IMG/VR virus record: IMGVR_UViG_3300027672_001796
Length of the DNA: 64,000 nucleotides
Source of the DNA: a virus
Lineage: Duplodnaviria > Caudoviricetes
Reading direction: 5' to 3' (one strand)
Shown here: piece by piece, positions 7,612 through 64,000 of the stretch
Layout: every line of letters begins with the position of its first letter
Position numbering within the stretch: the first letter of the stretch is position 1
Program-made: the position numbers and the translations under genes
The notes under the pieces: model-generated
What the model saw: only the letters and a program-made list of their open reading frames with translations
The model's database searches: none
What the model was told of the DNA's origin: nothing

Positions 7612-7617
7612 TATTTA
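7612..7617 (-). promoter_or_regulatory. Late promoter TAAATA for the gp14-gp15-Nudix operon
   Basis: Minus strand reads tgaTAAATActgctATG. Confidence 0.65.
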
Positions 7618-7633
7618 TCACTTTCTAAAGTTC

Positions 7634-11207: not shown

Positions 11208-11933
11208 TTGAACATAGAAACTGTAACATGGGTCCATCATTGGACAGACAAGACTTTTAGTTTTAAGACCACACGAAGCCAAACTTTTCGTTTTATAAAT
11301 GGCGAGTTTGCTATGATTGGATTAAAAGGAGAAGAGGAAGGATCACGTCCTTTAATTAGAGCATACAGTATTGCAAGTGCAAACTATGAAGACGAGTTAG
11401 AGTTCCTTAGTATTAAGGTACCGGACGGACCTCTTACAAGCCGTCTACAGCATTTAAAAGTTGGAGACGAAATAGTAGTAATGCCTAAGACAACCGGCAC
11501 ACTAACGATTGATAACATAACTAAAGCAAAGAATTTAATTTTACTTTCAACTGGAACAGGAATTGCACCCTTCCTAAGTATAATCAGAGACCCTGATACA
11601 TACGATAAGTTTGAAAATGTTACATTGGTACACACCACACGAACACACGCAGAGCATACTTACACTGACTTAATGGCAGAATTAGCAGAAACATTTCCAC
11701 TTAAATATTACGACACTTGTACCCAAGAAGATTATGTACGTTCAGGACGCTTCTGGGAACATGTAAATAATTTTACAGATGGAGGCTTTAATAAAGATAC
11801 AGATCGAGTTATGGTGTGCGGAGGCCCAGAGATGAATTACGAGTGTAGAGATTTTCTCGAAGAGCATAATTTTCAAGAAGGAAATTTAGGTGAGCCGGGC
11901 GACTTTGTGTTAGAACGTGCATTCGTAGACTGA
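11208..11933 (+). CDS. fpr: Ferredoxin/flavodoxin-NADP+ reductase
   Basis: RAYSIAS, GPLTSRLQHL, LSTGTGIAPF, MVCGGPEM and the C-terminal ERAF motif; TTG start. Confidence 0.93.
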   Translation: MNIETVTWVHHWTDKTFSFKTTRSQTFRFINGEFAMIGLKGEEEGSRPLIRAYSIASANYEDELEFLSIKVPDGPLTSRLQHLKVGDEIVVMPKTTGTLTIDNITKAKNLILLSTGTGIAPFLSIIRDPDTYDKFENVTLVHTTRTHAEHTYTDLMAELAETFPLKYYDTCTQEDYVRSGRFWEHVNNFTDGGFNKDTDRVMVCGGPEMNYECRDFLEEHNFQEGNLGEPGDFVLERAFVD

Positions 11934-11944
11934 TAAATATACAT

Positions 11945-15788: not shown

Positions 15789-15812
15789 TAGCAAAAAGTG
15801 ATAAATAGTTGT

Positions 15813-26844: not shown

Positions 26845-27546
26845 ATGAAAAACTTAAAAGAACTAATTAACGAATCTTTTAGCAAAGAGTACGGCTATAG
26901 AATTAAGTTAGCGAGAGATTGTAGCCCAGATGACCTATCTAAGCTGGAAGGCGTCCTTGCAAAGTATAACTTAGTTAGTGCTACTCCTTGGAAAAGATTA
27001 CCAATTCAAGAAAATCCAATGGAATTTCAAAGACTAAAAGGTGTAAACGTTACATCAGAAGTATGTAGTACAGATGTTGTACTTAAATACCCAGTCAATC
27101 AAAGAATACTAGAAGTATTAATTTGTGTTGAAATGAATATGGATCACGACCATGTATTATGTTACGGTGTTAACGATCCAAGAAAAGTAGAATCAGAACA
27201 GGCAGAGCAAAGACTTGCTGATGACCTAGACAGAAGTGTTGAGACTCCAGAAGCACAACTAGAAGAAGTTGATTCAACTGAAGAACAAGAACATTACACT
27301 GCACAGAACGAAGATTTAGACTTAGCCGTATTTGGTGAAGAGTATAACAGCAAGTTCTTAGCAGAGTTAGAAAGAATTAAAGCAGAGAAAGGTGCAGATT
27401 ACTTTAAGAATTACCCAACAAAAGATGAACTAATGGGCGACAACTTAAGAGCAATGCACGATTCCATAACTGGATTAGCACATGGCGGACTAGCACCTGA
27501 ATCTAAGGTAGCTGACGTTATATCACAAAGCTCGAGAAGAAACTAA
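26845..27546 (+). CDS. Putative prohead core / internal protein
   Basis: N-terminus MKNLKELINE|S resembles the T4 capsid-targeting sequence; tandem late promoters at 26807-26821. Confidence 0.6.
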   Translation: MKNLKELINESFSKEYGYRIKLARDCSPDDLSKLEGVLAKYNLVSATPWKRLPIQENPMEFQRLKGVNVTSEVCSTDVVLKYPVNQRILEVLICVEMNMDHDHVLCYGVNDPRKVESEQAEQRLADDLDRSVETPEAQLEEVDSTEEQEHYTAQNEDLDLAVFGEEYNSKFLAELERIKAEKGADYFKNYPTKDELMGDNLRAMHDSITGLAHGGLAPESKVADVISQSSRRN

Positions 27547-30524: not shown

Positions 30525-31808
30525 ATGGCGATTTCAGTTAAAACAGTAGCAGACAAAGTATTCAACTTATTAAAAGGATATGGTTTTGCTGTTGACACTT
30601 ACGATAAAGAAGGCGTTACAGTAGGCGATCCTGCAGATGCAGTACGTTTTTACGTTGAAGATCCAGACTTACTAGTTACACTTAATGTACCTCAAGAAGA
30701 AATTAAGTTTAGTGTTAGTGCAAATACAGAAGAAACTGACATTTTACGAAAGCAACTAAAACAGTTAGCCCAAAGTTACTTAATGAATTTAGACTTCAGA
30801 GTATTTGGGAAAACACTTAAACCAATAAGCGATGCAATAAGTGTTGCAAAAGCATCCAAAGAGACAGGTATGGAATCAGTAACAGAAGCAAATTTAGGAC
30901 CGGTTAGCGGTTCAGTGAAAACTAGTTATCAACCACTAGACAACGTTAAGATTATTGTTAAGCACAGTAAAGACGTTAATGAAGAAGTACGTGGTTCGAG
31001 AAGCAGAAACATTAATAAGATTTTTATCCAAGCGAACGAAGAACGTCATTTGTTCCCAAGTAAAAACTTACATGGTGCAAGAGCAATGGCTAGGCATATA
31101 CACAATGGTGGTACAATGCACGATACAGTCGCTGAAAGCATTATTGGAATGTGTAAAGACTTTGGCTCTATTAAAGAGTTTGTTGGCTATGTTACAAAGA
31201 AAGGGTTGGTTAACGAAACCAATGGCGAGTATGTCTCACTTGCTAAAGAACATATTGAAAACATTAGAACTACATTTAAGAAACTTAGCGGTGTAAAAAC
31301 TTATGCAAATGCTGTTGAAAGTTTAGCAGAATTTAATAACGTTGAAATAGTTAATGAAGTAAACTTAGAAGACCACTTCACTGAAACACATTTTGACGAA
31401 AAAGTAGGAAATGCACATCACACATTAAGCAGATTAGTTAATAAGCAGTCCGCTTTTGAAAGTTACATAATGGATACTATCCAAACAGAATCATTTAAGA
31501 ATGCTAAAACACTTATGCAAGAAAGTGAAGTAATGCAGTTTGATACACCTAATGCACAATTAGGATATAGAGTATCACAACTAGGGCAATCTGCAAGTAG
31601 CGAGAAGTTAGGCGGATATTTAAATGGTATAGGTAGCAAGTTATCTGGAGGAGGCAATATGTCTCAGTTTGAATACAGAGCAGTTAAGGCATCATTGCTT
31701 TCAGCACAGAATTCAACACCAGTTATGGCAGAAAGTACAGACGATTTAGGCAAATATGAATCCTTCCTAGACACGTTTACTAATACTGATAAGCCTTTTG
31801 CTCAATAA
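30525..31808 (+). CDS. Hypothetical late protein
   Basis: Late promoter at 30500-30505 plus SD aggag; internal VTE|A and LxE sites. Confidence 0.75.
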   Translation: MAISVKTVADKVFNLLKGYGFAVDTYDKEGVTVGDPADAVRFYVEDPDLLVTLNVPQEEIKFSVSANTEETDILRKQLKQLAQSYLMNLDFRVFGKTLKPISDAISVAKASKETGMESVTEANLGPVSGSVKTSYQPLDNVKIIVKHSKDVNEEVRGSRSRNINKIFIQANEERHLFPSKNLHGARAMARHIHNGGTMHDTVAESIIGMCKDFGSIKEFVGYVTKKGLVNETNGEYVSLAKEHIENIRTTFKKLSGVKTYANAVESLAEFNNVEIVNEVNLEDHFTETHFDEKVGNAHHTLSRLVNKQSAFESYIMDTIQTESFKNAKTLMQESEVMQFDTPNAQLGYRVSQLGQSASSEKLGGYLNGIGSKLSGGGNMSQFEYRAVKASLLSAQNSTPVMAESTDDLGKYESFLDTFTNTDKPFAQ

Positions 31809-48868: not shown

Positions 48869-49846
48869 ATGCATCATCATGAACTAGTAGACCAAGTACA
48901 TCGATTACTTATGGATAATTTGCCCTTAAACTCTGGCAAAACTCCTAGTGGTTGGATAACGTTTGATTGTCCTCTATGTAGCGACAAGAGAAAACGTGCA
49001 GGAGTAATTCAGAGTAATGCTAAAATAAGCTATCACTGTTTTAACTGTAGTTTTACAACTGGCTGGGCACCTAGTCCAAAGTTAGGTCATAAGTACAGGC
49101 AACTATGTGAGACATTAGGTGTGTCTAACAAGGATATACATAAAGTTGTTTTAGACTTAATGAAGCATTCCGAAGAATTAGAGATAGAAGACAGCACTGA
49201 GTATGTTTATACAGCGGCTAGTTTCGTAACACATCAATTACCAGAAGAAACTACACTAGTAGAACACATGGAAGATGGACACCCAATTAAAGAATATGCA
49301 CAACAACGTGGATTGCTAGGCAATTTCCCTTTGATGCACATTAACAACAGTCTATACAAAAAACGTTTAGTTGTTCCGTTTCTATATAACAACGAATTAG
49401 TAGGATGGACCGGCAGACACATTAGCCCACCTAACAAAGAAACTGCAAAGTACCTATTAAATGTACAACCAGGCTATGTGTTTAACATAGACAGGTATGT
49501 AGACAGTGATAGAGACTTTGTTATAGTAGTAGAAGGCGTATTTGATGCAATACTTATAGATGGCATAAGTGTTTTGGGTAATAGTGTAACACCTGAACAA
49601 GCACATTTGATTTCTAAACTTAATAAACGTGTTATACTATGTCCTGATAGAGATAGTGCAGGTAAAGACTTAATAGCAACAGCAGTAGAACTAGGATGGG
49701 AAGTAAGTTTTCCTAAATGGTCGTCTGAATGCAAAGATGTTGCCGATGCAGTAAACAAATATGGCAGGTTATTAACAATGAAGAGCATTACAGAAAATGC
49801 AGTTAGTAACGAACTTAAAATACAAGTTCAGGCAAAAATGCTATGA
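48869..49846 (+). CDS. gp61: DNA primase (Zn ribbon + TOPRIM, gp61-like)
   Basis: CPLC...HCFNC; VVEGVFDA; CPDRDSAG; KDVAD. Confidence 0.88.
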   Translation: MHHHELVDQVHRLLMDNLPLNSGKTPSGWITFDCPLCSDKRKRAGVIQSNAKISYHCFNCSFTTGWAPSPKLGHKYRQLCETLGVSNKDIHKVVLDLMKHSEELEIEDSTEYVYTAASFVTHQLPEETTLVEHMEDGHPIKEYAQQRGLLGNFPLMHINNSLYKKRLVVPFLYNNELVGWTGRHISPPNKETAKYLLNVQPGYVFNIDRYVDSDRDFVIVVEGVFDAILIDGISVLGNSVTPEQAHLISKLNKRVILCPDRDSAGKDLIATAVELGWEVSFPKWSSECKDVADAVNKYGRLLTMKSITENAVSNELKIQVQAKML

Positions 49847-50574
49847 CAAAATTATTTGTAAATGGATGTAGTTTTACAGCAGGTAATGGTGAAGTACATA
49901 CTGCTGATGGCGAACTGGCACCTCCGTTAGAGTATGTTTGGGCAAACCAAATACCCGAATTTGAATCTGTTACTAATTTAGCAATTAGAGGTGCGAGTAA
50001 CGATAGAATACTTCGTACCACAATGGAATATTTTAATTCTCGTAATGCTACAGACTATGTTGCAGTTATACAATGGACTAGTCCTTTGCGTTTTGAACGC
50101 TTTATACCTTCATGTAACGCATTTGCTGGCTTTTGTAATACAACGGGGAAGACTATTAGTTTTAACATGGATAATGCTAATGATTTAGAAAAGCTACAAA
50201 CCAATGGCATGTACGACAGGCTAACAGATGCGGCTGAGAAACAGTTAATGCATGGAAAGAGCATAACTGATTACCAGATAAATTTTTATAAGAAAGTTAT
50301 TTTGATGCAACAGTATTTAGACAGCAAAATGATACCGTATATATTTACATCAATGTCACTTTACAGCCATCTCCTTAGTGATGATGCTGACAAGGAACAA
50401 TACGAACTACATTTAAAGAACAATGTGGATACTGATAAATGGACAGCTCGACCGTTAACAATTTACCAAGAGCGTAATTTTATTAGTGCTGAAGATAAAC
50501 ACCCTAATGAAACCGGACATAAACTTATAGGCGATGCAATTTATAAAGAACTACAACAGAGGAATTATGTATGA
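49843..50574 (+). CDS. SGNH/GDSL-like protein
   Basis: VNGCSFTAG; NLAIRGASNDRI; DKHPNETGH. Confidence 0.7.
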   Translation: MTKLFVNGCSFTAGNGEVHTADGELAPPLEYVWANQIPEFESVTNLAIRGASNDRILRTTMEYFNSRNATDYVAVIQWTSPLRFERFIPSCNAFAGFCNTTGKTISFNMDNANDLEKLQTNGMYDRLTDAAEKQLMHGKSITDYQINFYKKVILMQQYLDSKMIPYIFTSMSLYSHLLSDDADKEQYELHLKNNVDTDKWTARPLTIYQERNFISAEDKHPNETGHKLIGDAIYKELQQRNYV

Positions 50575-51299
50575 ATAATTTGCTTGTGAATGGTTGTAGT
50601 TATACAGCAGGGTCTGGTATGGCTGGCGGAGACAACAATATATCTCCGATAGTATGGTCAAATCATTTAGCAGACAGATTCGATACTGTAGATAATCTTG
50701 CAATGGGCGGAGAGAGTAATGATAGAATAGTACGAACTACATTAGACTTTTGTAATAATCACGATATGACAGACTATGCTGTGATTATACAATGGACGTC
50801 AGTATATAGATCAGAATATTGGAATGCAGAGAGGAAAGAATGGGTAAATGTTGTTGTAAATAATGGACTTCAGGGTGCAGACGAATGGACACTTAGTACA
50901 AACGAGGACACCGATGGCAGAATTAGAGATGCATACGATAAAGAAATGAAATGGCTAAATTCGCCAAATGATTATAATATTGCATACTATAATAACATAC
51001 TAATACTACAAAACTATTTCGAGTATATGGATATTCCATATATGTTTAGTTGTATGACATTACAAGACCATCCTTGCTGTGACCCAACATTAATGGATCT
51101 AATGCATCTATTAAATAGAACAACTACAGAAATAAATTTAAGAAGATTGATGGATAAAAGCAAATGGTCAGAATTATCACTTGCAAAGTACTCAGGCGAT
51201 AACTATATTAGCCAAGAAGATAGCCATCCAAACTTAAAAGGTAATAAATTAATAGCACAGGCTTTATATAAGGAGCTCATGGAAAAATATGGAAGATAA
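50571..51299 (+). CDS. SGNH/GDSL-like protein (paralog)
   Basis: VNGCSYTAG; NLAMGGESNDRI; DSHPNLKGN. Confidence 0.7.
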   Translation: MNNLLVNGCSYTAGSGMAGGDNNISPIVWSNHLADRFDTVDNLAMGGESNDRIVRTTLDFCNNHDMTDYAVIIQWTSVYRSEYWNAERKEWVNVVVNNGLQGADEWTLSTNEDTDGRIRDAYDKEMKWLNSPNDYNIAYYNNILILQNYFEYMDIPYMFSCMTLQDHPCCDPTLMDLMHLLNRTTTEINLRRLMDKSKWSELSLAKYSGDNYISQEDSHPNLKGNKLIAQALYKELMEKYGR

Positions 51300-52668: not shown

Positions 52669-52700
52669 ATGATAAATATGACTATAACGAGAAATAATTT

Positions 52701-52949
52701 ATGAAAAAGTCAAGAAGTATATTAGAAGAATTGAACTCTATTAGCACAGATAGAAACAAGCACCACGTTTTGGAAAACAGAGTGGAGCACCTAGTTTCTA
52801 GTGCGGCTAACATTAAAGAGATATTATATTCTTTATACGAGGAAGATGTTGCATTGGATTTAGAACGTAGACTCATTAACAGCATTAAAAGTGGCGATCC
52901 TAAAAAATTCTCTCGAGGCATAAACAAAGCCACAAAAGAATCTAAATAA
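52701..52949 (+). CDS. Small late protein (putative core protein)
   Basis: Late promoter at 52673-52678; N-terminus MKKSRSILEE. Confidence 0.65.
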   Translation: MKKSRSILEELNSISTDRNKHHVLENRVEHLVSSAANIKEILYSLYEEDVALDLERRLINSIKSGDPKKFSRGINKATKESK

Positions 52950-52959
52950 GAGAACTTGT

Positions 52960-54378
52960 ATGAAACTCGATGAACTAACTAATGCAGAGATGGTACCAGG
53001 CGGTGTAAAGGATCGTTTAGCAAGGAAGAAAGCGGCTAACCCGGCACCAGCACAACCCACAGCAGAACCAACACCAGAACCTACAGGGCCTACAGGCGCT
53101 CCAGCTGGAACAGTTGTTTCTCAATCAAACGGCGAATTTTATACTAAGTCTGCAGAAGGTACTTGGGCACAGTCCGATGAAAAAGGAACGTTAACTGGCA
53201 GACCAGCTGAAAATCCTAACAGTTCAATGGCGTTAGAATTAGAAAAGCAGTCAGCTCAAGCAGGCGTACAACAGCCAACAGCTACACCAACTGCTACAGC
53301 TACACCAACTGCTACAGCAACACCAACACCAACTGCTACAGCACCAGCAACACCGAGACCTATTAGAAAAGGTGAATTACTTAAAGCATCAGACGGCTTT
53401 GTATACGAGTGGCAAGGTGCTCAATGGATTAATCAAAGAAACGGCAGAATGGCAACAAAGGAAGTAGGAGCAGAACTTACAAAGAAAGCACAGCCAGTAC
53501 AACCTACAGCAACAGCACAACCTACAGCAACAGCACAACCTACAGCAACAGCACAACCTACAGCAACAGCGGCACCAGTACAACCTACAGCAACAGCGGC
53601 ACCAGTTGCCCCACAGAAACCAGTTGGCGGAGTTGTACCACAAGCACCATCAACAGCAGGTATGAGTAGAAGCGGAGCACCGCAGGCAGAAATTGATCCT
53701 AAAACAGGAGTTGTTGCCGCACCAGAGCCAGAAGGCGTAATGGATAAGATTAAACGTGGAGCTCAAGCAGTAGGCGATAAAATTGCAACAGCGGCAGGTG
53801 GACCATTAGCAAGTAAAACAAGACAAAATCCTAATGCAACACGTGGTCAAAAAATTGGCGCAACAGTTGGAGCAGGACTTGGACGAGCAATGTCAGGTGG
53901 AGCAAAAGCTATAGGTCAAATGATGAAAAAGAGAGGCGGACAAGCACCAGCACAAGGTCAAGCACAACCTAAAGCATTAAAGCCAGTCCCAGGGCCTACT
54001 ACAGCAGAACTAAAAAGTTTACAAAAAAGAACACTAGGTGGTGATTTAGAAGCTGGCAAACAATTAGTTGCAACATTAAGTAATTTAAAGAAAGGCGGAT
54101 ATGATGCTGATAACTTTATACAAGCCGCCGCACCAGTATTAAAGAAAGGTGGACTACCGCAATCAGATCCACAAGCATACACACATTTTACTAAACTTGC
54201 TAGAAGTATGAGAGCAGAAGCATACAAGCATGTTTGTAAGATATTAGAACATGCTGGAATTAGTTGGGCTGACTTAGGATATGAAGTATTACTTTCAGAA
54301 TCAGTTACATCACATGTGATGTTAATAGAAACAAAAGACATACAACTATACAACCTCAAAAAATTATCAGGCATTTAA
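52960..54378 (+). CDS. Pro/Thr/Ala-rich putative internal virion protein
   Basis: MKLDELTNAE start; PTATA repeats; glycine-zipper-like segment. Confidence 0.75.
   Translation: MKLDELTNAEMVPGGVKDRLARKKAANPAPAQPTAEPTPEPTGPTGAPAGTVVSQSNGEFYTKSAEGTWAQSDEKGTLTGRPAENPNSSMALELEKQSAQAGVQQPTATPTATATPTATATPTPTATAPATPRPIRKGELLKASDGFVYEWQGAQWINQRNGRMATKEVGAELTKKAQPVQPTATAQPTATAQPTATAQPTATAAPVQPTATAAPVAPQKPVGGVVPQAPSTAGMSRSGAPQAEIDPKTGVVAAPEPEGVMDKIKRGAQAVGDKIATAAGGPLASKTRQNPNATRGQKIGATVGAGLGRAMSGGAKAIGQMMKKRGGQAPAQGQAQPKALKPVPGPTTAELKSLQKRTLGGDLEAGKQLVATLSNLKKGGYDADNFIQAAAPVLKKGGLPQSDPQAYTHFTKLARSMRAEAYKHVCKILEHAGISWADLGYEVLLSESVTSHVMLIETKDIQLYNLKKLSGI
53500..53607 (+). repeat. 18-nt tandem repeat (QPTATA x4) plus two APV-interrupted copies
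   Basis: caacctacagcaacagca repeated; a related ATPTAT run lies at ~53275-53345. Confidence 0.9.
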
Positions 54379-54379
54379 A

Positions 54380-55660
54380 ATGAATATTAATGAGATAGCA
54401 AAGCCTCTTATTACACAATTACTTACAGAGAGTCATTTTCAAGAAGGTAAGGAAGGTAAGAATACTCATTTAGAGCATTTAGAGGATAACATCTTTAACA
54501 AAGGATATCCCGGAGCCAAAGAAGCAGTAAATTATTTGTATAGTTTACATGATATGCTAGATGGCAAATCACAACAAGCAGTAAGCATGACAACTAAGTG
54601 GGACGGCGCTCCAGCCATTATTGCTGGCAAAGATCCAGCAACTGGTAAGTTCTTTGTAGGCACCAAAGGCGTATTTGCAAAAATTCCTAAAATGAATTTT
54701 ACCACTAACGACATCAAACTAAATCATCCTGGACAAGATGACCTGCAGAATAAATTAGCATTAGCATTAACTAAATTAAGTAAACTAACTTGGAATACAG
54801 TAGCACAGGGAGATTTTCTTTTTGCGAAAGACACTCTAAGTGAAAAAGAAATTGATGGAGAAAGTTATTTAATTTTTAAACCTAACACATTAGTATATGC
54901 TGTGCCTTCCCAAAGCGAACTGTCTAGTCAGATAGTAAAAAGTGATATAGGTATTGTTTGGCATACAGAATATGTAGGCGGTCCAACATTAGCAGACACT
55001 CAAGCAAAGTTTGGATTTGATAGTAGTGTATTAGGACAAGCACCTGGTGTTTGGCACAGAGATGCAATTATTAAAGACCTTAGTGGCACAGTTACATTTA
55101 CTGCTACTGAAAGTGCAGACATTATGTCGGCTATTGCTACAGCAGACCAGTACTTAAAAACTGTAGACCAGGATACATTTGCTTGGTTAGGACAGGGCAC
55201 AGACTTAGTAGGCAAAGAGTTCTTACAGCAATTAAAAGCACATGCAAACAATCAAGTAAGGCAAGGACATTTTGACGAACCTACTAAATTTGCACAAGGC
55301 TTTGTACAAAAATATATAGACTACATGACAAAAGAAATAGACAAAGTTAAAACACAAAAAAGTATCGATGCTAAAACAGAAAAAATGGTAGCAGGCGTTA
55401 AATTTATTAGAGAACATTTACAAAGTATTGTATCAGTGTATGACTTATATTTAAAACTTATTGAAGCAAAAATTAAAATAGTTAAGAAGCTAGAACAAAT
55501 CCGTGTAATGAATACATTTGTACCAACAGAAGATGGATATGAAGTAACAGGCGAAGAAGGCTTTGTTGCAGTTGACAGAATGGGCAATGCATTAAAACTG
55601 GTAGACAGATTAGAGTTTAGTAGACTTAACTTTGGATCAGGTAAACCTAGTGGAAAATAA
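54380..55660 (+). CDS. Conserved T4-like phage protein (DUF6267-like)
   Basis: KNTHLEHLED; TTKWDGAPAI; FFVGTKGVF; FKPNT; EGFVAVD...KLVDRLEFSRLNF. Confidence 0.7.
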   Translation: MNINEIAKPLITQLLTESHFQEGKEGKNTHLEHLEDNIFNKGYPGAKEAVNYLYSLHDMLDGKSQQAVSMTTKWDGAPAIIAGKDPATGKFFVGTKGVFAKIPKMNFTTNDIKLNHPGQDDLQNKLALALTKLSKLTWNTVAQGDFLFAKDTLSEKEIDGESYLIFKPNTLVYAVPSQSELSSQIVKSDIGIVWHTEYVGGPTLADTQAKFGFDSSVLGQAPGVWHRDAIIKDLSGTVTFTATESADIMSAIATADQYLKTVDQDTFAWLGQGTDLVGKEFLQQLKAHANNQVRQGHFDEPTKFAQGFVQKYIDYMTKEIDKVKTQKSIDAKTEKMVAGVKFIREHLQSIVSVYDLYLKLIEAKIKIVKKLEQIRVMNTFVPTEDGYEVTGEEGFVAVDRMGNALKLVDRLEFSRLNFGSGKPSGK

Positions 55661-56423
55661 TTTAGACTTAAAGTTAGTTAATAAAGAGTTATGTGAAAGC
55701 AAGTTATATAGATCAACGTCTGGCTTTAAAAGTCTGACAGGTAGAGATATTGCAGATTTATTTTATTTGCAAACACTAAGTCTTATAATGATGTATCAAG
55801 ATAACAAGCAACAGGACTATGCGTTAGTGTATGCAAGAAAAACATGCCAGTATGGACCCTATGCAGTTTTTAGAACAGCGGCAACTGACTTGTACATGTT
55901 AGGGTTTGCTATTAACAATCCTGACTACCAAAGTTTAAAGTTTAAAAGTAAAGATGTAAGTTTTTTAAATTCTTTACAATTCCAAAACAGAAAGCATTAT
56001 GCTTTTATGCAACGTGTACAACGACAGGGTCTTAGTAAAAGTGATATTACAACAACTCTGTTTAGGTTCGAATCACAATTACAAATTAAAAATCCAATAC
56101 TTAAACAGTTAAGACGATTAATTATAAGTTGGCCCAGTCTAAAATTTGCTCAACGACAGTTAGTTGTTAGTAAAATAATCCAGTTAATGAGATTAAAAGG
56201 AAGAGGCAGTGAGATATTTACTCAAGTAAGTTCAATGAGCTCTAGAAAGGAACTTAAACCTATACCAAAAACATCGACTCTTAAACGTGCCGCTGGTACG
56301 GCAGTTGGTGCCTATGCAGGAAGTAAAATCTTGCCAAGAGTATCAAGTAAAATATCATCTGTTTCAGGTGCCGGCATTGGCGCAATCGCAGGGTATTGGG
56401 CAAGTGGACGAAAAAAGGCATAA
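55632..56423 (+). CDS. Hypothetical protein with C-terminal glycine zippers (GTG at 55650 is an alternative start)
   Basis: ELCE|S site; AAGTAVGAYAG and GAGIGAIAGYW. Confidence 0.7.
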   Translation: MDQVNLVENNLDLKLVNKELCESKLYRSTSGFKSLTGRDIADLFYLQTLSLIMMYQDNKQQDYALVYARKTCQYGPYAVFRTAATDLYMLGFAINNPDYQSLKFKSKDVSFLNSLQFQNRKHYAFMQRVQRQGLSKSDITTTLFRFESQLQIKNPILKQLRRLIISWPSLKFAQRQLVVSKIIQLMRLKGRGSEIFTQVSSMSSRKELKPIPKTSTLKRAAGTAVGAYAGSKILPRVSSKISSVSGAGIGAIAGYWASGRKKA

Positions 56424-56437
56424 GGATAAATAGTTGT

Positions 56438-56971
56438 ATGAAAATAAGTGAAATAGAAGCACCGGGCAAAACCTTAGACCAATTACATAAAGAATGGGTA
56501 GTAGCTTATAGTCCGGACGGTGCCACTCAAGCGAGGGTATGGTCACAGGCAATTAAAGCCCAGGCGGCTGGTATGGAACCAGCAAGAGCACATAATTCTG
56601 CATTGTCGGCTGTTAATAGTAGTAATGATCGCAGACAAGATAGGGCGTTAAACCAACGACAAGCTGATAGAAAAGACAAGCCGTTTGTTGGCGTACCAAT
56701 GAAGCAAAAAGGAACTCCACCCACTGCATCAGATTCACCCAAAACTAGAGGCGGACAAATAGGTAACCAAAATGCTTATAGAGGCGGCCCAAAAGCAAAA
56801 GCTGGTCCAGGCAAGAACGCGATTGACGTAATGAAAGACAAATGGGACGATTTCAACAAAGTTGATGGTTTAGCAGGCAAATCTGCCGCTAAAGGAAGTA
56901 TGATATCAAAATATCTCAATAAAGCCGCCGGCGAGATAGTAGCAATGGGTGATAGAGCCCGAAGGAAGTAA
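56438..56971 (+). CDS. Basic putative internal protein
   Basis: TAAATA-gttgt-ATG; MKISEIE start; GGQIGNQNA motif. Confidence 0.7.
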   Translation: MKISEIEAPGKTLDQLHKEWVVAYSPDGATQARVWSQAIKAQAAGMEPARAHNSALSAVNSSNDRRQDRALNQRQADRKDKPFVGVPMKQKGTPPTASDSPKTRGGQIGNQNAYRGGPKAKAGPGKNAIDVMKDKWDDFNKVDGLAGKSAAKGSMISKYLNKAAGEIVAMGDRARRK

Positions 56972-57057
56972 TACCTATTTAACTACAATAAAACACTCTT
57001 AAAATCTCCTATTTTGCATAAATAAACGTAACATTAACAAATTCTAGGAGAATTAAC

Positions 57058-57426
57058 ATGGCACAAACTCAAAACACAGGCGCCGCAGTAGCACCAGGTC
57101 ACTATAGTGGTCTTCCTCTTGCAGGCGTTCAAGTAGATTTCGGTGTTGACGTTTCAGCTAAATTGGCTGTAGGCGGAGCATTAGATATATTTTTAAAAGC
57201 AGTCGGTAACGAAGGCTTAACACCAGTAGCAGTTGGCACAGTCGACGCAACAGGTGGAGCAGGACAAGGACTTAAGGTTCTTTTCGAAGGCACACATGGA
57301 ACAGACAAATATGACGGAACTAACAGTGAAGCTCTAGCGGCTCATTTGGAAGACGTTGTAATTGCTCTTACAGACGCTGATGGCGTTACATGGGCTAACG
57401 TAACTGTTGTAGCATTTACTCTTTAA
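57058..57426 (+). CDS. Small Ala/Gly/Val-rich virion protein (decoration-like)
   Basis: Own late promoter (57019-57024), SD aggag and terminator. Confidence 0.75.
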   Translation: MAQTQNTGAAVAPGHYSGLPLAGVQVDFGVDVSAKLAVGGALDIFLKAVGNEGLTPVAVGTVDATGGAGQGLKVLFEGTHGTDKYDGTNSEALAAHLEDVVIALTDADGVTWANVTVVAFTL

Positions 57427-57445
57427 GATTAAATCACAAACATTT

Positions 57446-57470
57446 AAAAAGCACCTTACGGTGCTTTTTT
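57446..57470 (+). terminator. Bidirectional intrinsic terminator
   Basis: aaaaagcacc-ttac-ggtgcttttt. Confidence 0.88.
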
Positions 57471-57606
57471 TATGAGTTTAACTTTATGCAACATACGAAT
57501 AAACTCTACATTTAGATAAATAAAAGTAACCAGAATACATATCTAATTTAATTTGGTAGTGGTACAAAGACCACAGATATGTAAATTTATAATTAGGAGT
57601 CATATT

Positions 57607-57936
57607 ATGGCATTAGTAAGAGTAGCAGGGGCAGGTTTTGCCCATGGAGTTTCATTTTCAACAGCACAAGTAACAGCGATCGAAATCGATGCAGGTGTAT
57701 CATTAGCGGCTAAAGACGGTTTAGGCGGAGCAGTAGAAAACATCGTATCAGAGTTTTCACCATTGCTTTACATCTCAACAGGCACAGCTGGTAAGATCTT
57801 TGCAATCGTTGACGGCGTTAATATTGACGCGGCATCATTGACAAAAAGATTACAAGCAAAGGGTACAATAGACGGTGTTAATTTATCAGCACAGACAGTT
57901 GTAATCCGCGATTTAGCTTCGTTCAGCGCCGCATAG
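57607..57936 (+). CDS. Small Ala/Gly/Val-rich virion protein
   Basis: Late promoter at 57517-57522; SD aggag; ATG at 57607. Confidence 0.75.
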   Translation: MALVRVAGAGFAHGVSFSTAQVTAIEIDAGVSLAAKDGLGGAVENIVSEFSPLLYISTGTAGKIFAIVDGVNIDAASLTKRLQAKGTIDGVNLSAQTVVIRDLASFSAA

Positions 57937-57993
57937 TAGTTTAAAAATATCCTAACTACCTTAGGTTCGTGACAACGGAAGGCGTCACATTTT

Positions 57994-58021
57994 AAAAGCA
58001 CTCTTAGGAGTGCTTTTTTTT
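57994..58021 (+). terminator. Bidirectional intrinsic terminator
   Basis: aaaagcactc-ttag-gagtgctttt. Confidence 0.88.
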
Positions 58022-58090
58022 GAATATAATTTCTGTATAGTAAAAACTGATAAAGTGATAAATAGTTGTAAGAATACACAGGAGACATAC

Positions 58091-58495
58091 ATGAGTTTAA
58101 TAAGAGGTGGGGCAATGGGCTCCGTAGAAGCACTAACAGGTAATATAGAATTTTTTACTTTGTTTACTTCAATTGACATAACTGTAACCGGTGATTATGA
58201 CGATAACACTCAAAAAGATTTTGAAAGTGTTGTACAAGTAATAGGATTAAGGGCAATGCCTGTAGTGATGAATAATCCTGTAGCACTAAATGGAGTTGGT
58301 ACAAACTTATTACAAACTTATGGAGCACCAACTATGACAGGTGCCGGGTGGATATTTAAATTTGCTACAGAAGTGCCACATGCACATACTGTTGCAACTT
58401 TAGTTAATGAACTTAACGGCATAGTGCTTAACAGCGGAACATTAGATACAACGGGCACCATAAACATGGAGTTCACTAAACAGGATTTATTATAA
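58091..58495 (+). CDS. Small virion protein
   Basis: Late promoter at 58059-58064; SD aggag; ATG at 58091. Confidence 0.75.
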   Translation: MSLIRGGAMGSVEALTGNIEFFTLFTSIDITVTGDYDDNTQKDFESVVQVIGLRAMPVVMNNPVALNGVGTNLLQTYGAPTMTGAGWIFKFATEVPHAHTVATLVNELNGIVLNSGTLDTTGTINMEFTKQDLL

Positions 58496-58496
58496 A

Positions 58497-58748
58497 ATGG
58501 CTAAGAAACTAGACCCAGATGCAGTACCAGAGATACAAGTGTACGCAGATAAAGAAAATTTAGAAGCTCATATCATTGCTGATATGCTTCGGATAGAAAG
58601 TATTACTACAGAACTTAGAGAGTTTAAAGTAGATACTAAAGAAAGATTAAATAAAATTGAAAATTGGGTACTAGCAATTGTTGGTACTACATTTACAACA
58701 TTAGTTACTATTGTAATTGCAATAGGCGTTACTTTGGCAGGTGGCTAA
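58497..58748 (+). CDS. Coiled-coil + C-terminal TM protein (XhlA/holin-like topology)
   Basis: ERLNKIENWV followed by a hydrophobic helix. Confidence 0.6.
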   Translation: MAKKLDPDAVPEIQVYADKENLEAHIIADMLRIESITTELREFKVDTKERLNKIENWVLAIVGTTFTTLVTIVIAIGVTLAGG

Positions 58749-59122
58749 TGAGAATACATGAATATATGAATCCAAGTGATGAGATAACATTAGAAGAAGG
58801 ACAATGTTTTCATGAAGAGTTTGGAGTATTAGCGTATAGCGAGTGCGAAGAAAACGTATTCGAAGCAGAATATCAAGGTCGTAAGGTTAAACTAAACAAG
58901 CCTATGCAAGGCGATTCTAAAAAGTTTAAAGTTTATGTCAAAGATCCTAAAACAGGTAATGTTAAAAAAGTAAACTTTGGACAAGGTGGTGACGCTAAAG
59001 GCGGCACAATGCGTATCAGAAAATCCAATCCAAAAGCAAGAAAAAGTTTTAGAGCAAGACACAATTGCGAGAATCCAGGACCAAAAACAAAAGCCAGGTA
59101 CTGGTCATGCAGGAAATGGTAA
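58748..59122 (+). CDS. Basic conserved phage protein with acidic propeptide
   Basis: MRIHEY...; after VFE|A it is K/R-rich, with KSFRARHNC...KARYWSCRKW. Confidence 0.75.
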   Translation: MRIHEYMNPSDEITLEEGQCFHEEFGVLAYSECEENVFEAEYQGRKVKLNKPMQGDSKKFKVYVKDPKTGNVKKVNFGQGGDAKGGTMRIRKSNPKARKSFRARHNCENPGPKTKARYWSCRKW

Positions 59123-59123
59123 A

Positions 59124-59420
59124 ATGCGATTAGAAGAAATTACAGAAGAATCGATTGTCGAAGCCAGAATGGTTTGGCGCAAAATGGGTAATAAAGTTAA
59201 ACGTGCCGTAAGATGTACTAGTGGCAGACGTAAAGGTAGAGTAGTATCTAATGCGGCTCAATGTCATAAACCAGTAGATATTAAAAAACGTATGGTATTA
59301 AGACGAACCAAAGCCAAGATGGGTGCTAGGATGTCTAGAAAGTCACAAAGATCAAAAAGAATGAATCCAGCTAGTAGAAGGCTAAAAACATTAAACAAAT
59401 CAAGTAATAGAAGAAGGTAA
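59124..59420 (+). CDS. Protamine-like basic protein with acidic propeptide
   Basis: MRLEEITEESIVE|ARMVWRK...SNRRR; only one acidic residue after position 13. Confidence 0.75.
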   Translation: MRLEEITEESIVEARMVWRKMGNKVKRAVRCTSGRRKGRVVSNAAQCHKPVDIKKRMVLRRTKAKMGARMSRKSQRSKRMNPASRRLKTLNKSSNRRR

Positions 59421-59421
59421 T

Positions 59422-62400
59422 ATGAAGTTTACGGATGTAAGGACGTTAAACAGTGTACTCAAGGAATACGGACTACAATCTGGTGCTCCAACTCCTGTGG
59501 GACAACAAGTTACCGGCGCAGTTGCAAAAGCAACAGCGGCACCTACTAAAGCACCTAAAAAAGATTTAGGTAGCCCAACAGTAACACCAGGATTAGACCT
59601 TCCTGATATCGGAGATCCTGAAACAGATACAGTTGCACCAACTTTAATGAAAGCAAAAGATTTTGATGACGGCGCTGAATACTTAGATGATAAAGGCGAA
59701 GTTGCAGGTAAAGTTGTAAGTAAAGTTGGCAAAGGCCCAGCTCTTAAAAAATTAGTTGTACAAGATCCTAAAGGAGAGTACACACTAATAGACCCTGATG
59801 AAGAATTAACAGTTGCGCCAATTACAGAATCAAAAGGCGGCAAGTACAGTAAAAAAGTTCATAAGAACGCTTTACGAAAAACATCTAAAAGCAAAAACAG
59901 TGTATCATCAGTTAAACAAAAAATTAAAAAACTTGCACGAAAAGTACAGATGCAAGAGCAAGGTGAAGAACAATTATTCGAATTAAACTTCAACACTAAA
60001 GAAATAATTGAATCAGCGTTAGATTCTCCTATCAAATGTGGATTTGAAGCAGAAACAGTATGGGGAGGCTATGTAGATTCTGATGCCAATTACGGCGAAG
60101 ATATTGACGACATGTCTTGGAGCGATATCGAAGACAGAATTATGGATGAATTTGGTAGAAGTTACTTAGACGACATCAACGAAGCATACCGTAATTGGAT
60201 CATGGAAGACAAGATGTACGAGTATGAAGGCGACCTTATAAGCGAGTTAGTTACCGAACGTAAAGAAGATCCAGAATACATAGAAAATTTTGTTGATTCG
60301 CAAGGTGGCCCTACAGAATATGCAGTAGAGAGATACAAAGAAGATTTTCGATCCAACAATCCAGAAGAATATGAATCCAGAATAGAAGATGGCTACGAGT
60401 ACATGAACTGGGTGAGAGAAATTGTTGAAGAAGAAATGGAAGACGAATTCATCGAATGGTTAGAACAAGACATCCGAGATAACGGAGAAGTATTTGACGC
60501 CGCCATGGAAGCCGCAGAGGAAGACCTATCTATATCGGATTGGGTAAGTGATACCTATGGAGGCATGAGTGCGATGTTAGGCGAGTTTGAAATTTGGCTC
60601 GCTGATAATAACGAGGCCGGTCTTGAAGGAATCGGAGAAGAACTAAGATCATGGGCCTATGACAATAGTCAGTCCACGCAATTTGAAGTTGGGGAATATC
60701 ATTCCGGTGGTATTAATAATGACTACTGGAGATTAGAAGACGACAGCAGTATCGAAGGCGATGGAGCTGGAGCAGAGATTATATCACCTGTGTATAATAC
60801 ACCAAGAGTAATGCTTGAAGAAATAAAATCATTGTTTGAGTTACTAGCAGACAGAGATGTAGAAACAAATAGGTCAACTGGCTTGCATGTTACTATGAGC
60901 TTAGACCCAACTCGACAAGACATGCCTGCAAATTCAGATGTTAATAAAGTAAAACTTGCTGTGTTGTTAGGCGACAAATATATAGCAAGTACTTTTGGTA
61001 GAGAAAATAACAGTTACTCTAAATCACAGTATGAACGATTAGAAAGGAAAGCGGCTGAACTTAAAGCAAATCCTAACAGTACAAAAACAATACAAGCAAT
61101 TGAAGAAATTTTAGAAGGTGCTATAAGCAGTGACAAGTTTAGTTCAATTAATTTTAAAAATCAAGCGGATAATCAGTCAGGTTACAATCTTATAGAATTT
61201 AGAATTGCAGGCGGTCATGATTACCACGAAGATATACAAAAAATTGTTAAGGCAACTGTGCGTTATGCAGAAACACTTAGGGCGGCATACACTGACGATC
61301 ATCAACAAGATTATGTAAAAGCATTATTTAAGTTAATCAATAACGTTGGTAAAATTAGTAATGATCTTGAGGACAGAGTTAAAGGTAGATACGAAGATTT
61401 AGATCACCCTGTCGTTGATGTGTTAAAAGGTTTCTTTGGCAAAGATCATTATATGGAAAGTGTAGGAACGTTAGCTCGAGCATTTAAACACTTATTCGAC
61501 TACAGAGAGAATATGGCAACAGATGCTGATGCAAAATGGGAACAGCGAGTAGCCCAATGGGAAGAACAGACTGGTGATAAACACGAAAGATTAAAGGAAG
61601 CACCTACACCACGTGAAGCCGCAATAGAAATAATGAAGCCTCAAAAAAGACCACCAAGTGTGCAGGCACCTAAATATCTAAAAGAAGCTCAAAACATGTT
61701 TAGTGCCGCAGTTGCACAGGCAGGGTATGACTTAAATCAAAACATGAATAGAACTCCGGTTAATGCCAAAGCAATTGGTGTGCTGAGAAAAACAATATCC
61801 GAATTTGAATTAACATATGAAACACTTTCTGAATTTGTAAATAGAAATTACAAGCAGATAGAATTTGCTAGAGGCTCTGCAGACCAAGAGACCGAATTTA
61901 GCAGAGTTAAAAATGGCGTCGATAGATTATTTAAGAAAGACATAATTGAATCGCCAGAATGGTTATCGCCATTGCAAGTTGAAAAAATTGTAACAGGAGT
62001 TTGGAACGCAATAAACTCTGAAGATCAAAGTCATTTAACTGATAAAGAACTGGCCCGTGCAATAATCAACGCTTCAGGAAATACGCATGAAGACGATGTT
62101 GAACGTATATTTAACGATGTAACGAAATCAAACTCGACTACCTATGAAAACTTATATCGGCTGATTGCAGGTGGCAGAGGCGACTGGTTCTCAGCTGGTA
62201 ACCCTATACAGGCTAAGGATTATGATACACTACTTAAACGATTAAAATCATATCCTGCATGGGATAAGCCTGTTGCAAGATCATATGATGCAAGAAATGT
62301 CAGTAACGACTCATACGCTAATACATCTATGAGATCTATGTTTGGTAAATTAGATAGACGTATGGATGCATTAGGTAATTTAAACAGCACAAATCCAGAA

Positions 62401-64000
62401 TTATATATTAACAGTTTGAAACAAGTCTTTAACAGTACAAAGCAATTACTTAAAGCTGTAGTCGAAGAGGGTGGGTTCTCCGGTGAACCATCTCGCGATG
62501 CTCCAAACTTCGTTATGCCGCCACGTAATCATGATAGAATAGTTGAGATTATGAAAGATTTAGAAGCAACAAACTATACAGCTAGTCCGTTTGATGATAA
62601 CGCAATACCGCAAGTTTATGGACATGTTAGGTCTTGGTTAGCAGATGCGTTTAATACTTTTAATCGATCAGAGCGAACACCCGAACAAATGGAAGAAATG
62701 AAGCCACGAACAGATGCGATTTCAAAATGGTTAAGTGGGTTAGATGTTATAGCACAGAAATTAGGATTCAGTAGCCAATCAGGTGCAATAGATAGTAAAC
62801 TGAATCAAGTACAAAAAGGTAAAGAATTTCAAATAGCAAATCACGGAGAGTGGCCCGCGACTATCACAGCATTTAACTATGGTGGTCAGGTATATGTTCT
62901 TAACGAGATCATGGAAATGATCCAGTTCACTCAAAACACACCAGGAATGGATGAACCAGTTCCAGAATTTTATGGACAATTTAATTTTAATAGTAGTATG
63001 TTTAGAAGTAGCACCAACGGAGTATTAGTTATACCAAATGCACATTACTTTATAGCTCTCGAAGCCTATGAAATGTTCACTAACAAAGATTACTTCAGTA
63101 AAGCTGGCTGGAGACAAACCAGAATACGAGCAATCCTTGATAAGTTCACTAAGGTATATGGCATACGTTTTGAAACTTTAGATAGTGCATACAAAAAAAT
63201 TAACCTACGTTTACTAAAAGAAATGGGCGTACAAGTTATAGAGAAAGGCGATGGCAGAGAAGGTTTAGCACCGTATAACTTTGCACCATTGTTACCAAGA
63301 GAAGAGATTAACGCTCCAAATGGAGAACCATTTGAACCAGGAAGTGCGGCAACATGGGCATTAGCGAATCCAGACCGCAACAATGCAGGCGTTGAGCGTA
63401 TCCGTGGTGTAACTGAGTTACCAATGGACGGTCTCGACGATGGCCCAACGGCGCCATTTCGCATAGCAAGAGCCGCCTATCCAGTATTTGACAAAATGAT
63501 GCGTGACGGCATGCAAAGGTATCTGCCAGCAGGCGCACCAGTAAATGAATTAGTTGCGTTTTTAAATAACCCAGAAAGACAACTATCGATCAAAGAGGCA
63601 GTGTTGCTGGTGATTTTTCAAGGCGGCGCAACGAGAGGCTCCAATGCCAACCAGCCACCTATCCTTACATTCCAGAACGCTTATTCAAGGGGAACCGAAG
63701 CCCTTCGGAACGGCGAGGTCCCTTACGAACAGGGTCCACTGGCAAGCTCCTCGGCTAACCACATTCCACATGACGAAAGTGTGTTTGACAAATTTGATAA
63801 ACTACCACTGGAAGAACAATTAAACTTACTTGATAAAGTTAACGACAGTAAATTAAATAAAGTGTTTGAAACACTCGCGGCAAATACAACATCATTATCA
63901 CCAGTTACAGAAGGCGAAGAAAGATCAGACATTCAGGCATTAATGAAAGATAAGTGCGACGAATGGTTAAACAGCGTACATCCAGGACAGTATTCAGGCT
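59422..64000 (+). CDS. Giant (>1520 aa, 3'-truncated) protein with an amidoligase (COOH-NH2 ligase, Amidoligase_2-like) domain; not in the ORF track
   Basis: ATG at 59422 (MKFTDVRTLNSVLKEY...); no + strand ORF is closed before the window end; motifs CGFEAE (~60040), WRLEDDSSI (~60730), EIISP (~60780), TNRSTGLHV (~60870), KFSSINF (~61140), IEFRIAGG (~61195). Confidence 0.82.
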   Translation, partial: MKFTDVRTLNSVLKEYGLQSGAPTPVGQQVTGAVAKATAAPTKAPKKDLGSPTVTPGLDLPDIGDPETDTVAPTLMKAKDFDDGAEYLDDKGEVAGKVVSKVGKGPALKKLVVQDPKGEYTLIDPDEELTVAPITESKGGKYSKKVHKNALRKTSKSKNSVSSVKQKIKKLARKVQMQEQGEEQLFELNFNTKEIIESALDSPIKCGFEAETVWGGYVDSDANYGEDIDDMSWSDIEDRIMDEFGRSYLDDINEAYRNWIMEDKMYEYEGDLISELVTERKEDPEYIENFVDSQGGPTEYAVERYKEDFRSNNPEEYESRIEDGYEYMNWVREIVEEEMEDEFIEWLEQDIRDNGEVFDAAMEAAEEDLSISDWVSDTYGGMSAMLGEFEIWLADNNEAGLEGIGEELRSWAYDNSQSTQFEVGEYHSGGINNDYWRLEDDSSIEGDGAGAEIISPVYNTPRVMLEEIKSLFELLADRDVETNRSTGLHVTMSLDPTRQDMPANSDVNKVKLAVLLGDKYIASTFGRENNSYSKSQYERLERKAAELKANPNSTKTIQAIEEILEGAISSDKFSSINFKNQADNQSGYNLIEFRIAGGHDYHEDIQKIVKATVRYAETLRAAYTDDHQQDYVKALFKLINNVGKISNDLEDRVKGRYEDLDHPVVDVLKGFFGKDHYMESVGTLARAFKHLFDYRENMATDADAKWEQRVAQWEEQTGDKHERLKEAPTPREAAIEIMKPQKRPPSVQAPKYLKEAQNMFSAAVAQAGYDLNQNMNRTPVNAKAIGVLRKTISEFELTYETLSEFVNRNYKQIEFARGSADQETEFSRVKNGVDRLFKKDIIESPEWLSPLQVEKIVTGVWNAINSEDQSHLTDKELARAIINASGNTHEDDVERIFNDVTKSNSTTYENLYRLIAGGRGDWFSAGNPIQAKDYDTLLKRLKSYPAWDKPVARSYDARNVSNDSYANTSMRSMFGKLDRRMDALGNLNSTNPELYINSLKQVFNSTKQLLKAVVEEGGFSGEPSRDAPNFVMPPRNHDRIVEIMKDLEATNYTASPFDDNAIPQVYGHVRSWLADAFNTFNRSERTPEQMEEMKPRTDAISKWLSGLDVIAQKLGFSSQSGAIDSKLNQVQKGKEFQIANHGEWPATITAFNYGGQVYVLNEIMEMIQFTQNTPGMDEPVPEFYGQFNFNSSMFRSSTNGVLVIPNAHYFIALEAYEMFTNKDYFSKAGWRQTRIRAILDKFTKVYGIRFETLDSAYKKINLRLLKEMGVQVIEKGDGREGLAPYNFAPLLPREEINAPNGEPFEPGSAATWALANPDRNNAGVERIRGVTELPMDGLDDGPTAPFRIARAAYPVFDKMMRDGMQRYLPAGAPVNELVAFLNNPERQLSIKEAVLLVIFQGGATRGSNANQPPILTFQNAYSRGTEALRNGEVPYEQGPLASSSANHIPHDESVFDKFDKLPLEEQLNLLDKVNDSKLNKVFETLAANTTSLSPVTEGEERSDIQALMKDKCDEWLNSVHPGQYSG

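Follow-up and report, generated by a model that had tools for sequence, protein, structure and literature searches.

The 64,000-nucleotide stretch of viral DNA IMGVR_UViG_3300027672_001796 (referred to as the window) belongs to a jumbo myovirus of marine origin that is uncultured and has a core of T4 type. Directly downstream of its DnaB-like helicase gene, the window carries a block of 12 genes (52701–64000; genes are named here after their first nucleotide). Eight of the encoded proteins start with a short leader (5–22 residues) that is amphipathic and acidic, begins M-[K/R/N]-hydrophobic-x-[E/D]-hydrophobic and ends in hydrophobic-x-Glu. Sequence comparison and analogy with phage T4 make it likely that these leaders are T4-type capsid-targeting propeptides, carried by head-internal proteins and removed by a protease. 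An earlier note on the same DNA had proposed this resemblance, and it was borne out in that orthologues share the leaders, which stop at a hydrophobic-x-Glu and are situated outside the folded domain, in that the lineage has a gp21-type protease, and in that some homologues are virion proteins. The finding would extend a known T4 mechanism to this phage lineage.

Leaders and their conserved ends

The strongest evidence for these putative leaders is the conservation of their hydrophobic-x-Glu site. A search of IMG/VR with the helicase gave 594 confirmed matches, and the best 80 served as related loci for orthologue comparisons; the contigs of two of these 80 measure 217 kb and 340 kb. When distinct orthologue N-termini from these 80 loci were scanned for hydrophobic-x-Glu within residues 3–26, the site turned out to be kept in every orthologue of eight families, in keeping with the downstream (I/L)xE sites pointed out before: 52701 (41/41, as L-x-E near residue 10), 52960 (6/6 close orthologues, all with the leader), 54380 (40/40), 55650 (38/38), 56438 (4/4), 58748 (3/3), 59124 (21/21) and 59422 (17/17). 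Orthologues of these leader families that have the site reach down to ~25% identity. The corresponding counts for the four leaderless families (57058, 57607, 58091 and 58497) were 0/19, 6/19, 3/9 and 2/7, the 0/19 being that of 58091.

The aligned sites directly precede the conserved mature domain, and the linker before the site varies in length. Orthologues of the DUF6267 protein (54380) read LLTE↓S, IILE↓AENKNTH or FLAE↓AAKVG (the arrow marking the predicted cut) ahead of an invariant HLED box. For 55650, the aligned site is L-x-E↓[S/A][K/R]LYR, and [S/A][K/R]L[Y/F]R comes after the L-x-E in most of its 38 N-termini; for 59422 it is L-x-E↓Y in all 17 orthologues. In 59124, all 21 orthologues have the leader and an [I/V/L/F]-x-E followed by A (in a few cases G, T or N), aligned as [I/V/L]-x-E↓A ahead of RMVWRK. 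The 56438 gene was found in only four related loci, where it always begins M[K/R][I/L]xE[I/L]E. Among distant DUF6267 orthologues, starts such as MKARQFLAE↓A, MRASDFLFE↓A and, in phage DLP_6, MMKFTQFLAE↓S bear a close likeness to MKTYQEFIAE, the capsid targeting sequence of T4.

At the very N-terminus, the strict pattern ^M[KRN][LIVFM].[ED][LIVFYM] was fitted, with curated starts, by 6 of the 12 block genes and by none of the 63 remaining genes of the window (Fisher p = 4.6e-6). The six are 52960, 54380, 56438, 58748, 59124 and 59422. In a relative of 339.8 kb (G002; 77% helicase identity, 401 open reading frames (ORFs) called), the block has a counterpart of 18 genes, 7 of which fit the pattern versus 3 of 383 genes elsewhere (p = 1.1e-8). 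All N-termini quoted before were found at their coordinates; a correction concerns the start of the fourth leader gene, listed at 55632, for which a GTG at 55650 is most likely, since close relatives begin there or at an ATG four codons on. Position 55662 was rejected as a start for this gene, the codon there being TTA in the window.

Protease, virion proteins and comparable phages

The head module of G002 encodes a Peptidase_S77 protease of the T4 gp21 type (E 5.8e-25). In this module the portal gene is followed by genes for a 66-residue protein (start MRLNEF) and an acidic protein, and then by those for protease, scaffold and major capsid protein. The order is that of T4 except for one gene inserted after the 66-residue protein, and the position of this small pattern-bearing protein after the portal gene is like that of T4 gp67. 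Cleavage by gp21 follows an (L/I)-x-E rule. The G002 protease itself reads IELLE↓SKDGKEL, versus PMLE↓SHDGKDL in T4 gp21, and matching sites are present in the G002 scaffold (DLIE↓S) and major capsid protein (HLQE↓S). No protease match was found on a 12.5-kb fragment of a near relative. By analogy with T4, the precursor would be docked by its leader into the prohead's scaffolding core, where a gp21-type (Peptidase_S77) prohead protease would cleave after the leader Glu; the cut leader would then exit the capsid, and the mature proteins would remain inside alongside the DNA and probably be carried out together with it at infection.

In T4, internal head proteins all enter the core via a capsid targeting sequence, with propeptides of 10–20 residues, and Alt sheds only six residues, at ITE-6 (PMC5694885). 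The block resembles these T4 proteins in its leaders of 5–20 residues with an (L/I)-x-Glu end, found on basic, probably head-internal proteins and an enzyme, in the S77-type protease, as seen in G002, and in its putatively late genes. However, the block leader is a degenerate pattern, whereas T4 has one near-identical decapeptide, and the cargo predicted here includes a protein of >1500 residues and an RNA-ligase-like enzyme. Similar starts occur on T4 shell and scaffold proteins, namely gp24 (MAKINELLRE↓S), gp22 (MLKEQLIAE↓A) and gp67 (MEGLIE↓A; all from NC_000866), and the leader of the outlying gene 26845 (MKNLKELINE↓S) is much like that of gp24. In T4, gp24, gp22, gp67, gp68 and gp23 are shell or scaffold components; most block proteins have no T4 homologue. 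Many head-internal proteins of the giant phages phiKZ and SPN3US are likewise trimmed after Glu by a gp21-related protease, and a role like that of the T4 targeting sequence has been ascribed to their propeptides; these propeptides, however, are mostly >100 residues long, the protease is of the S80 type with A/S/G-x-E cleavage, and the phages belong to another lineage. The literature found on the term 'capsid targeting sequence' covered T4, P1, P22 and SPN3US, and none of it concerned marine or PA5oct-like phages.

Indirect evidence for a place in the virion comes from cultured phages. From the sheath gene to the block, the window is arranged like the genome of the Pseudomonas jumbo phage PA5oct (287 kb), whose gp250–gp259 region (PMC7318152) likewise has a structural gene, primase, helicase and small virion protein followed by a run of virion proteins. 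Sequence similarity to the block was detectable for two of these genes only: the annotation of gp259 (42% identity to 52701) is virion protein, and that of gp250 (38% identity to 58091) is 'structural protein, ESI-MS/MS', i.e. detected by electrospray ionization tandem mass spectrometry (MS). The same technique detected gp282, the homologue of 26845. Most genes 3′ of the PA5oct helicase are in fact MS-positive, including gp254 (81 residues, MRLDEI, at the position of 59124), and so is gp333 (MKINDI), directly 3′ of the portal gene; gp256 of the same region starts MNIAEI. A tally over the initial 200 kb of PA5oct gave 5 MS-positive proteins among the 8 annotated coding sequences with a pattern start, versus 70 among the 289 others (p = 0.027). 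The PA5oct paper (PMC7318152) contains nothing on leaders, propeptides or processing.

Further away, the Kyanoviridae phages HTVC008M and Melnitz, as well as DLP_6, carry a comparable block (helicase gp41, an intervening gene, DUF6267, a basic protein and a cytidylyltransferase) with T4-like leaders on neighbouring genes, such as MKKFSEIIE↓A and MKNIKDILE↓A. In cyanophage S-CREM2, the cytidylyltransferase gp154 (MKNFSSFLTE↓A) was detected by mass spectrometry among the virion proteins, and the DUF6267-like ORF, which has no leader, is absent from the virion table (PMC10665884). The DUF6267 protein of S-PM2 also lacks a leader, unlike that of the window. In G002, the cytidylyltransferase-like gene lies elsewhere in the genome and has no N-terminal leader, unlike in the Kyanoviridae block; the protein ends in the C-terminal motif described below for 52960.

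Alternative readings and candidate cargo enzymes

Several points weigh against capsid targeting. Neither the protease gene nor the head module is present in the 64-kb window, and the protease was seen only in G002, at 77% helicase identity. The virion evidence comes from cultured phages that are not close relatives of the window phage; moreover, the PA5oct MS list also holds evident cytoplasmic enzymes and is therefore noisy, and gp256, at the DUF6267 position, is not among the proteins detected. The strict N-terminal pattern was set post hoc, from data already in view, and three G002 genes beyond the block fit it, one of them MazG-like and probably matching by chance. Hydrophobic-x-E is a common motif, occurring near the N-terminus in 149 of 383 G002 genes (39%). 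Finally, the leaders of 56438 and 58748 rest on 3–4 orthologues, and the conserved site of 58748 (ITLE) is a poor fit to the cleavage rule.

The earlier view of the block as a dedicated cargo locus could not be upheld. The internal-protein loci of T-even phages are hypervariable in content with only the leader conserved, and the block does not behave in this way: 7 of the 12 block genes recur as conserved genes throughout the 80 related loci (the variable ones being 52960, 56438, 57058, 57607 and 58748), its order is common to PA5oct and partly to Kyanoviridae, four of its members are acidic and leaderless, and 52960 has a scaffold-like C-terminus. The block is thus a conserved core module with a fixed place after the helicase gene, unlike the T4 internal-protein locus.

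This conservation also bears on the possibility that the leader proteins serve assembly only, either as prohead core or scaffold components or as proteins that stay inside the head for good, for example to condense DNA; they would be processed and have no role in the host after ejection. T4 gp22, gp67 and gp68 have the same type of N-terminus with an assembly role only, and two of the conserved core genes, 52701 and 59124, encode small proteins of helical or protamine-like character. A further case is 52960, every orthologue of which ends in L-[K/R]-x-L-[A/S]-G-[I/V/L] (LKKLSGI in the window, 54355–54378). The same motif ends the scaffolds of G002 (LRKLAGLSNK; L087:6963-8075:-) and PA5oct (gp330, LRRLAGIK), and it was observed twice in the G002 proteome versus 0.015 times expected. 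Possibly it acts as another signal, at the C-terminus, by which proteins bind inside the prohead, and it ties 52960 to the prohead interior, perhaps as an assembly part; because of this scaffold-type motif, 52960 may serve assembly and not be cargo. An assembly role suits some members of the block. As an account of the whole we consider it unlikely, since enzymes with conserved catalytic residues do not fit it, namely the DUF6267 protein (K-x-D-G), the amidoligase-like domain of the giant protein 59422 and a leader-bearing superoxide dismutase of G002, and since T4 Alt, with its six-residue leader, is a precedent for a packaged and ejected enzyme.

The DUF6267 assignment of 54380 is firm (PF19782; E 8.1e-102, 341.8 bits versus a cut-off of 27, residues 28–421). 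K73-W-D75-G76, E393, G394 and K406 are invariant in 26 sequences down to 23% identity, so that both ligase motif I (the K-x-D-G that holds the catalytic lysine) and a motif IV/V-like E-G...K are present. The structure model has a predicted local distance difference test score (pLDDT) of 80 overall and below 50 for residues 1–29, so that the leader is unstructured in the model and the body is confident. With VIA-align, its best matches, all RNA ligases and all below Z 8, were the Naegleria nick-sealing ligase 5cot (Z 7.9, 186 aligned residues, root-mean-square deviation 4.2), the trypanosome editing ligase 1xdn (Z 7.6), T4 Rnl2 (1s68, Z 6.9), and Trl1 and T4 Rnl1 (Z 6.5–6.6). Foldseek yielded no significant match (best, DNA ligases at E about 0.1), a sequence search of the PDB no match, and a literature search no paper on DUF6267. 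The modest Z values, combined with motif I, suggest a covalent nucleotidyltransferase and probably an RNA ligase.

By tblastn, DUF6267 has matches in 460 phage records, mostly of cyanophages. PA5oct gp256, with its MNIAEI start and an EKIDG motif, was considered as a DUF6267 protein but could not be linked to that family: it has no Pfam hit, and hhalign gave a probability of 1% with just 'EGxV..KxVD' aligned. In S-PM2, the DUF6267 region (L090) is annotated as two genes, p141 and p142, of which p142 also matches a cytidylyltransferase-like domain. HTVC008M and Melnitz have this domain as a protein of its own, which hints at a functional connection of the two enzymes.

If the leaders are capsid-targeting propeptides, it is plausible, by analogy with T4, that the block enzymes act in the host after ejection. 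We would go further only tentatively, to a possible though rather doubtful picture of the block as a capsid-delivered enzyme kit, loaded via T4-type leaders and acting before phage gene expression, in phages from PA5oct-like jumbo phages to cyanobacterial and SAR11 T4-like phages. Such a kit might contain the DUF6267 protein, the giant amidoligase-like protein and protamine-like condensers and, in relatives, the superoxide dismutase and the cytidylyltransferase-like enzyme; one conceivable, equally speculative action would be the resealing of RNA cut by host defence nucleases.

The least probable explanation is that the N-termini hold no packaging signal and reflect a constraint on translation initiation, with A-rich codons behind the ATG, or else a generic N-terminal helix cap or targeting to another location, such as the membrane or an intracellular compartment. 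The leader DNA is A/T-rich, Lys at position 2 is common (K, R or N stands there in 25% of non-block genes), and some non-block G002 genes fit the pattern. Yet the leaders are encoded by differing codons, which argues for likeness and selection at the peptide level and not for a copied DNA cassette; the highly expressed sheath and tube genes, the terminase gene and other late genes (including that of the virion protein at 30525) have no leader, which is thus no general trait of late genes; a translation constraint leaves unexplained the conserved hydrophobic-x-E 10–20 residues on, right at the mature domain; and the leaders are acidic and too short for signal peptides, with no hydrophobic N-terminal segment in the leader proteins, so that we regard this explanation as improbable.

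Should capsid targeting by these leaders hold true, the rule known from T4, by which an address tag at the N-terminus is later cut off by a protease, would reach well beyond T-even phages, and for uncultured marine and jumbo phages the capsid cargo would be readable straight from sequence. It would also yield a testable list of candidates for entry into the host together with the DNA, among them the uncharacterised RNA-ligase-like DUF6267 protein, and the short leaders could serve as packaging tags for engineering PA5oct, Melnitz and cyanomyoviruses.

Genes of the block and a late-promoter-like element

Coordinates of the genes and elements discussed here, with positions in the window; leaders and cuts (↓) are predicted
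Feature	Position	Strand	Remarks
Tail sheath	19952		T4-type core gene
Tail tube	22886		T4-type core gene
Head closure	25101		T4-type core gene
Outlying leader gene	26845..27546	+	leader MKNLKELINE↓S
T4-type large terminase	28141		core gene
gp32-like ssDNA-binding protein	31977		core gene
UvsX/RecA-like recombinase	33010		core gene
Primase	48869		core gene
DnaB-like helicase	51289		core gene; block directly 3′
GATAAATA element	52671..52678	+	upstream of 52701
82-residue basic helical protein	52701..52949	+	basic stretch at N-terminus, then SILEE↓L
472-residue Pro/Thr/Ala-rich protein	52960..54378	+	leader MKLDE↓L; C-terminus LKKLSGI
DUF6267 protein, probable RNA-ligase-like nucleotidyltransferase	54380..55660	+	leader ~17–22 residues (LLTE↓S, FQE↓G)
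257-residue basic protein, pI 10.2	55650..56423	+	leader ending ELCE↓S; Gly-zipper-like C-terminal tail
GATAAATA element	56425..56432	+	5 nt before ATG at 56438
177-residue basic accessory protein	56438..56971	+	leader MKISE↓I
122-residue acidic protein	57058..57426	+	no leader
109-residue acidic protein	57607..57936	+	no leader; 26–30% identity to 57058
134-residue acidic protein	58091..58495	+	no leader; virion protein by homology to PA5oct gp250
83-residue acidic protein	58497..58748	+	hydrophobic C-terminal segment; no conserved leader
124-residue basic accessory protein	58748..59122	+	MRIHEY..ITLEE; leader assignment weak
98-residue protamine-like protein	59124..59420	+	acidic 13-residue leader ending IVE↓A
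Giant protein, runs past window end	59422..63999	+	leader MKFTDV..LKE↓Y; amidoligase-like domain

The leader proteins are basic, with isoelectric points (pI) of 9.3–12.0, except for the DUF6267 protein (pI 6.1) and the giant protein (pI 4.8), and their leaderless neighbours 57058, 57607, 58091 and 58497 are all acidic. Searches of PHROGs and Pfam gave no match for 52960, 56438, 57058, 57607, 58091 and 59124. The first gene, 52701, matches phrog_11854 'virion structural protein' (E 2e-14) and has homologues in the jumbo phages PA5oct, RaK2, GAP32 and CBB. The outlying gene 26845 belongs to phrog_14802, also 'virion structural protein', and its G002 orthologue begins MRELKDIINE↓S. After removal of its leader, the protamine-like 59124 protein would retain 85 residues, of which 32 are K or R and 1 is D or E. 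Judging from its identity to 57058, 57607 may be a distant paralogue; alignment of the 58091 family to these two gave a weak profile match (probability 8%), and the structure model of 58091 is poor (pLDDT 62).

The G002 orthologue of the giant protein is 1693 residues long and scores 24.3 bits against Amidoligase_2 (PF12224; cut-off 22), with 16.6 bits (E 0.0076) for the window copy. In G002, the block extends further, with a superoxide dismutase and more small basic leader proteins. This Fe/Mn superoxide dismutase (L093:12766-13305:-) follows the giant protein, has a putative leader of ~12–17 residues (MKLHDFLTE↓D), and its gene adjoins a leaderless alternative-oxidase (AOX/PTOX) gene.

The 58748 gene matches phrog_7595 and has only three orthologues, with unlike N-termini. 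Its small, basic, Cys/His-containing product is 49% identical to the cytidylyltransferase-like protein of Melnitz, over the C-terminal domain of the latter, and the DNA (58748–59122) is 73.6% identical to genes of the Pelagibacter phages Kolga and Aegir. This suggests a mobile module swapped between marine phages.

Between the primase and helicase genes lie two tandem paralogues (49843–50574 and 50571–51299) with SGNH/GDSL hydrolase-like N-termini (NGCS[F/Y]TAG). A protein with a similar N-terminus (CGCSWS) is the one inserted in the G002 head module (L087:9684-10499:-), between the small post-portal and the acidic core proteins.

The element GATAAATA occurs in 14 copies versus 5.4 ± 2.6 expected, a number that 0 of 100 shuffles reached, and most copies lie a short way upstream of gene starts. 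It precedes the sheath and tube genes, three genes with virion-protein homologues, and the block genes 52701, 56438, 57607 and 58091; the remaining block genes abut or overlap the preceding gene. Because GATAAATA is enriched and lies mostly near gene starts, including those of four block genes, late control of the block is plausible. In four cases the element ends exactly 5 nt before an ATG (7612–7619 on the minus strand, 11932–11939, 15800–15807 and the copy before 56438), and TAAATA variants are found at a similar distance before the starts at 1977, 13889, 26163, 28141 and 47949. If GATAAATA is a late promoter, the mRNAs of these late genes would be leaderless or nearly so.

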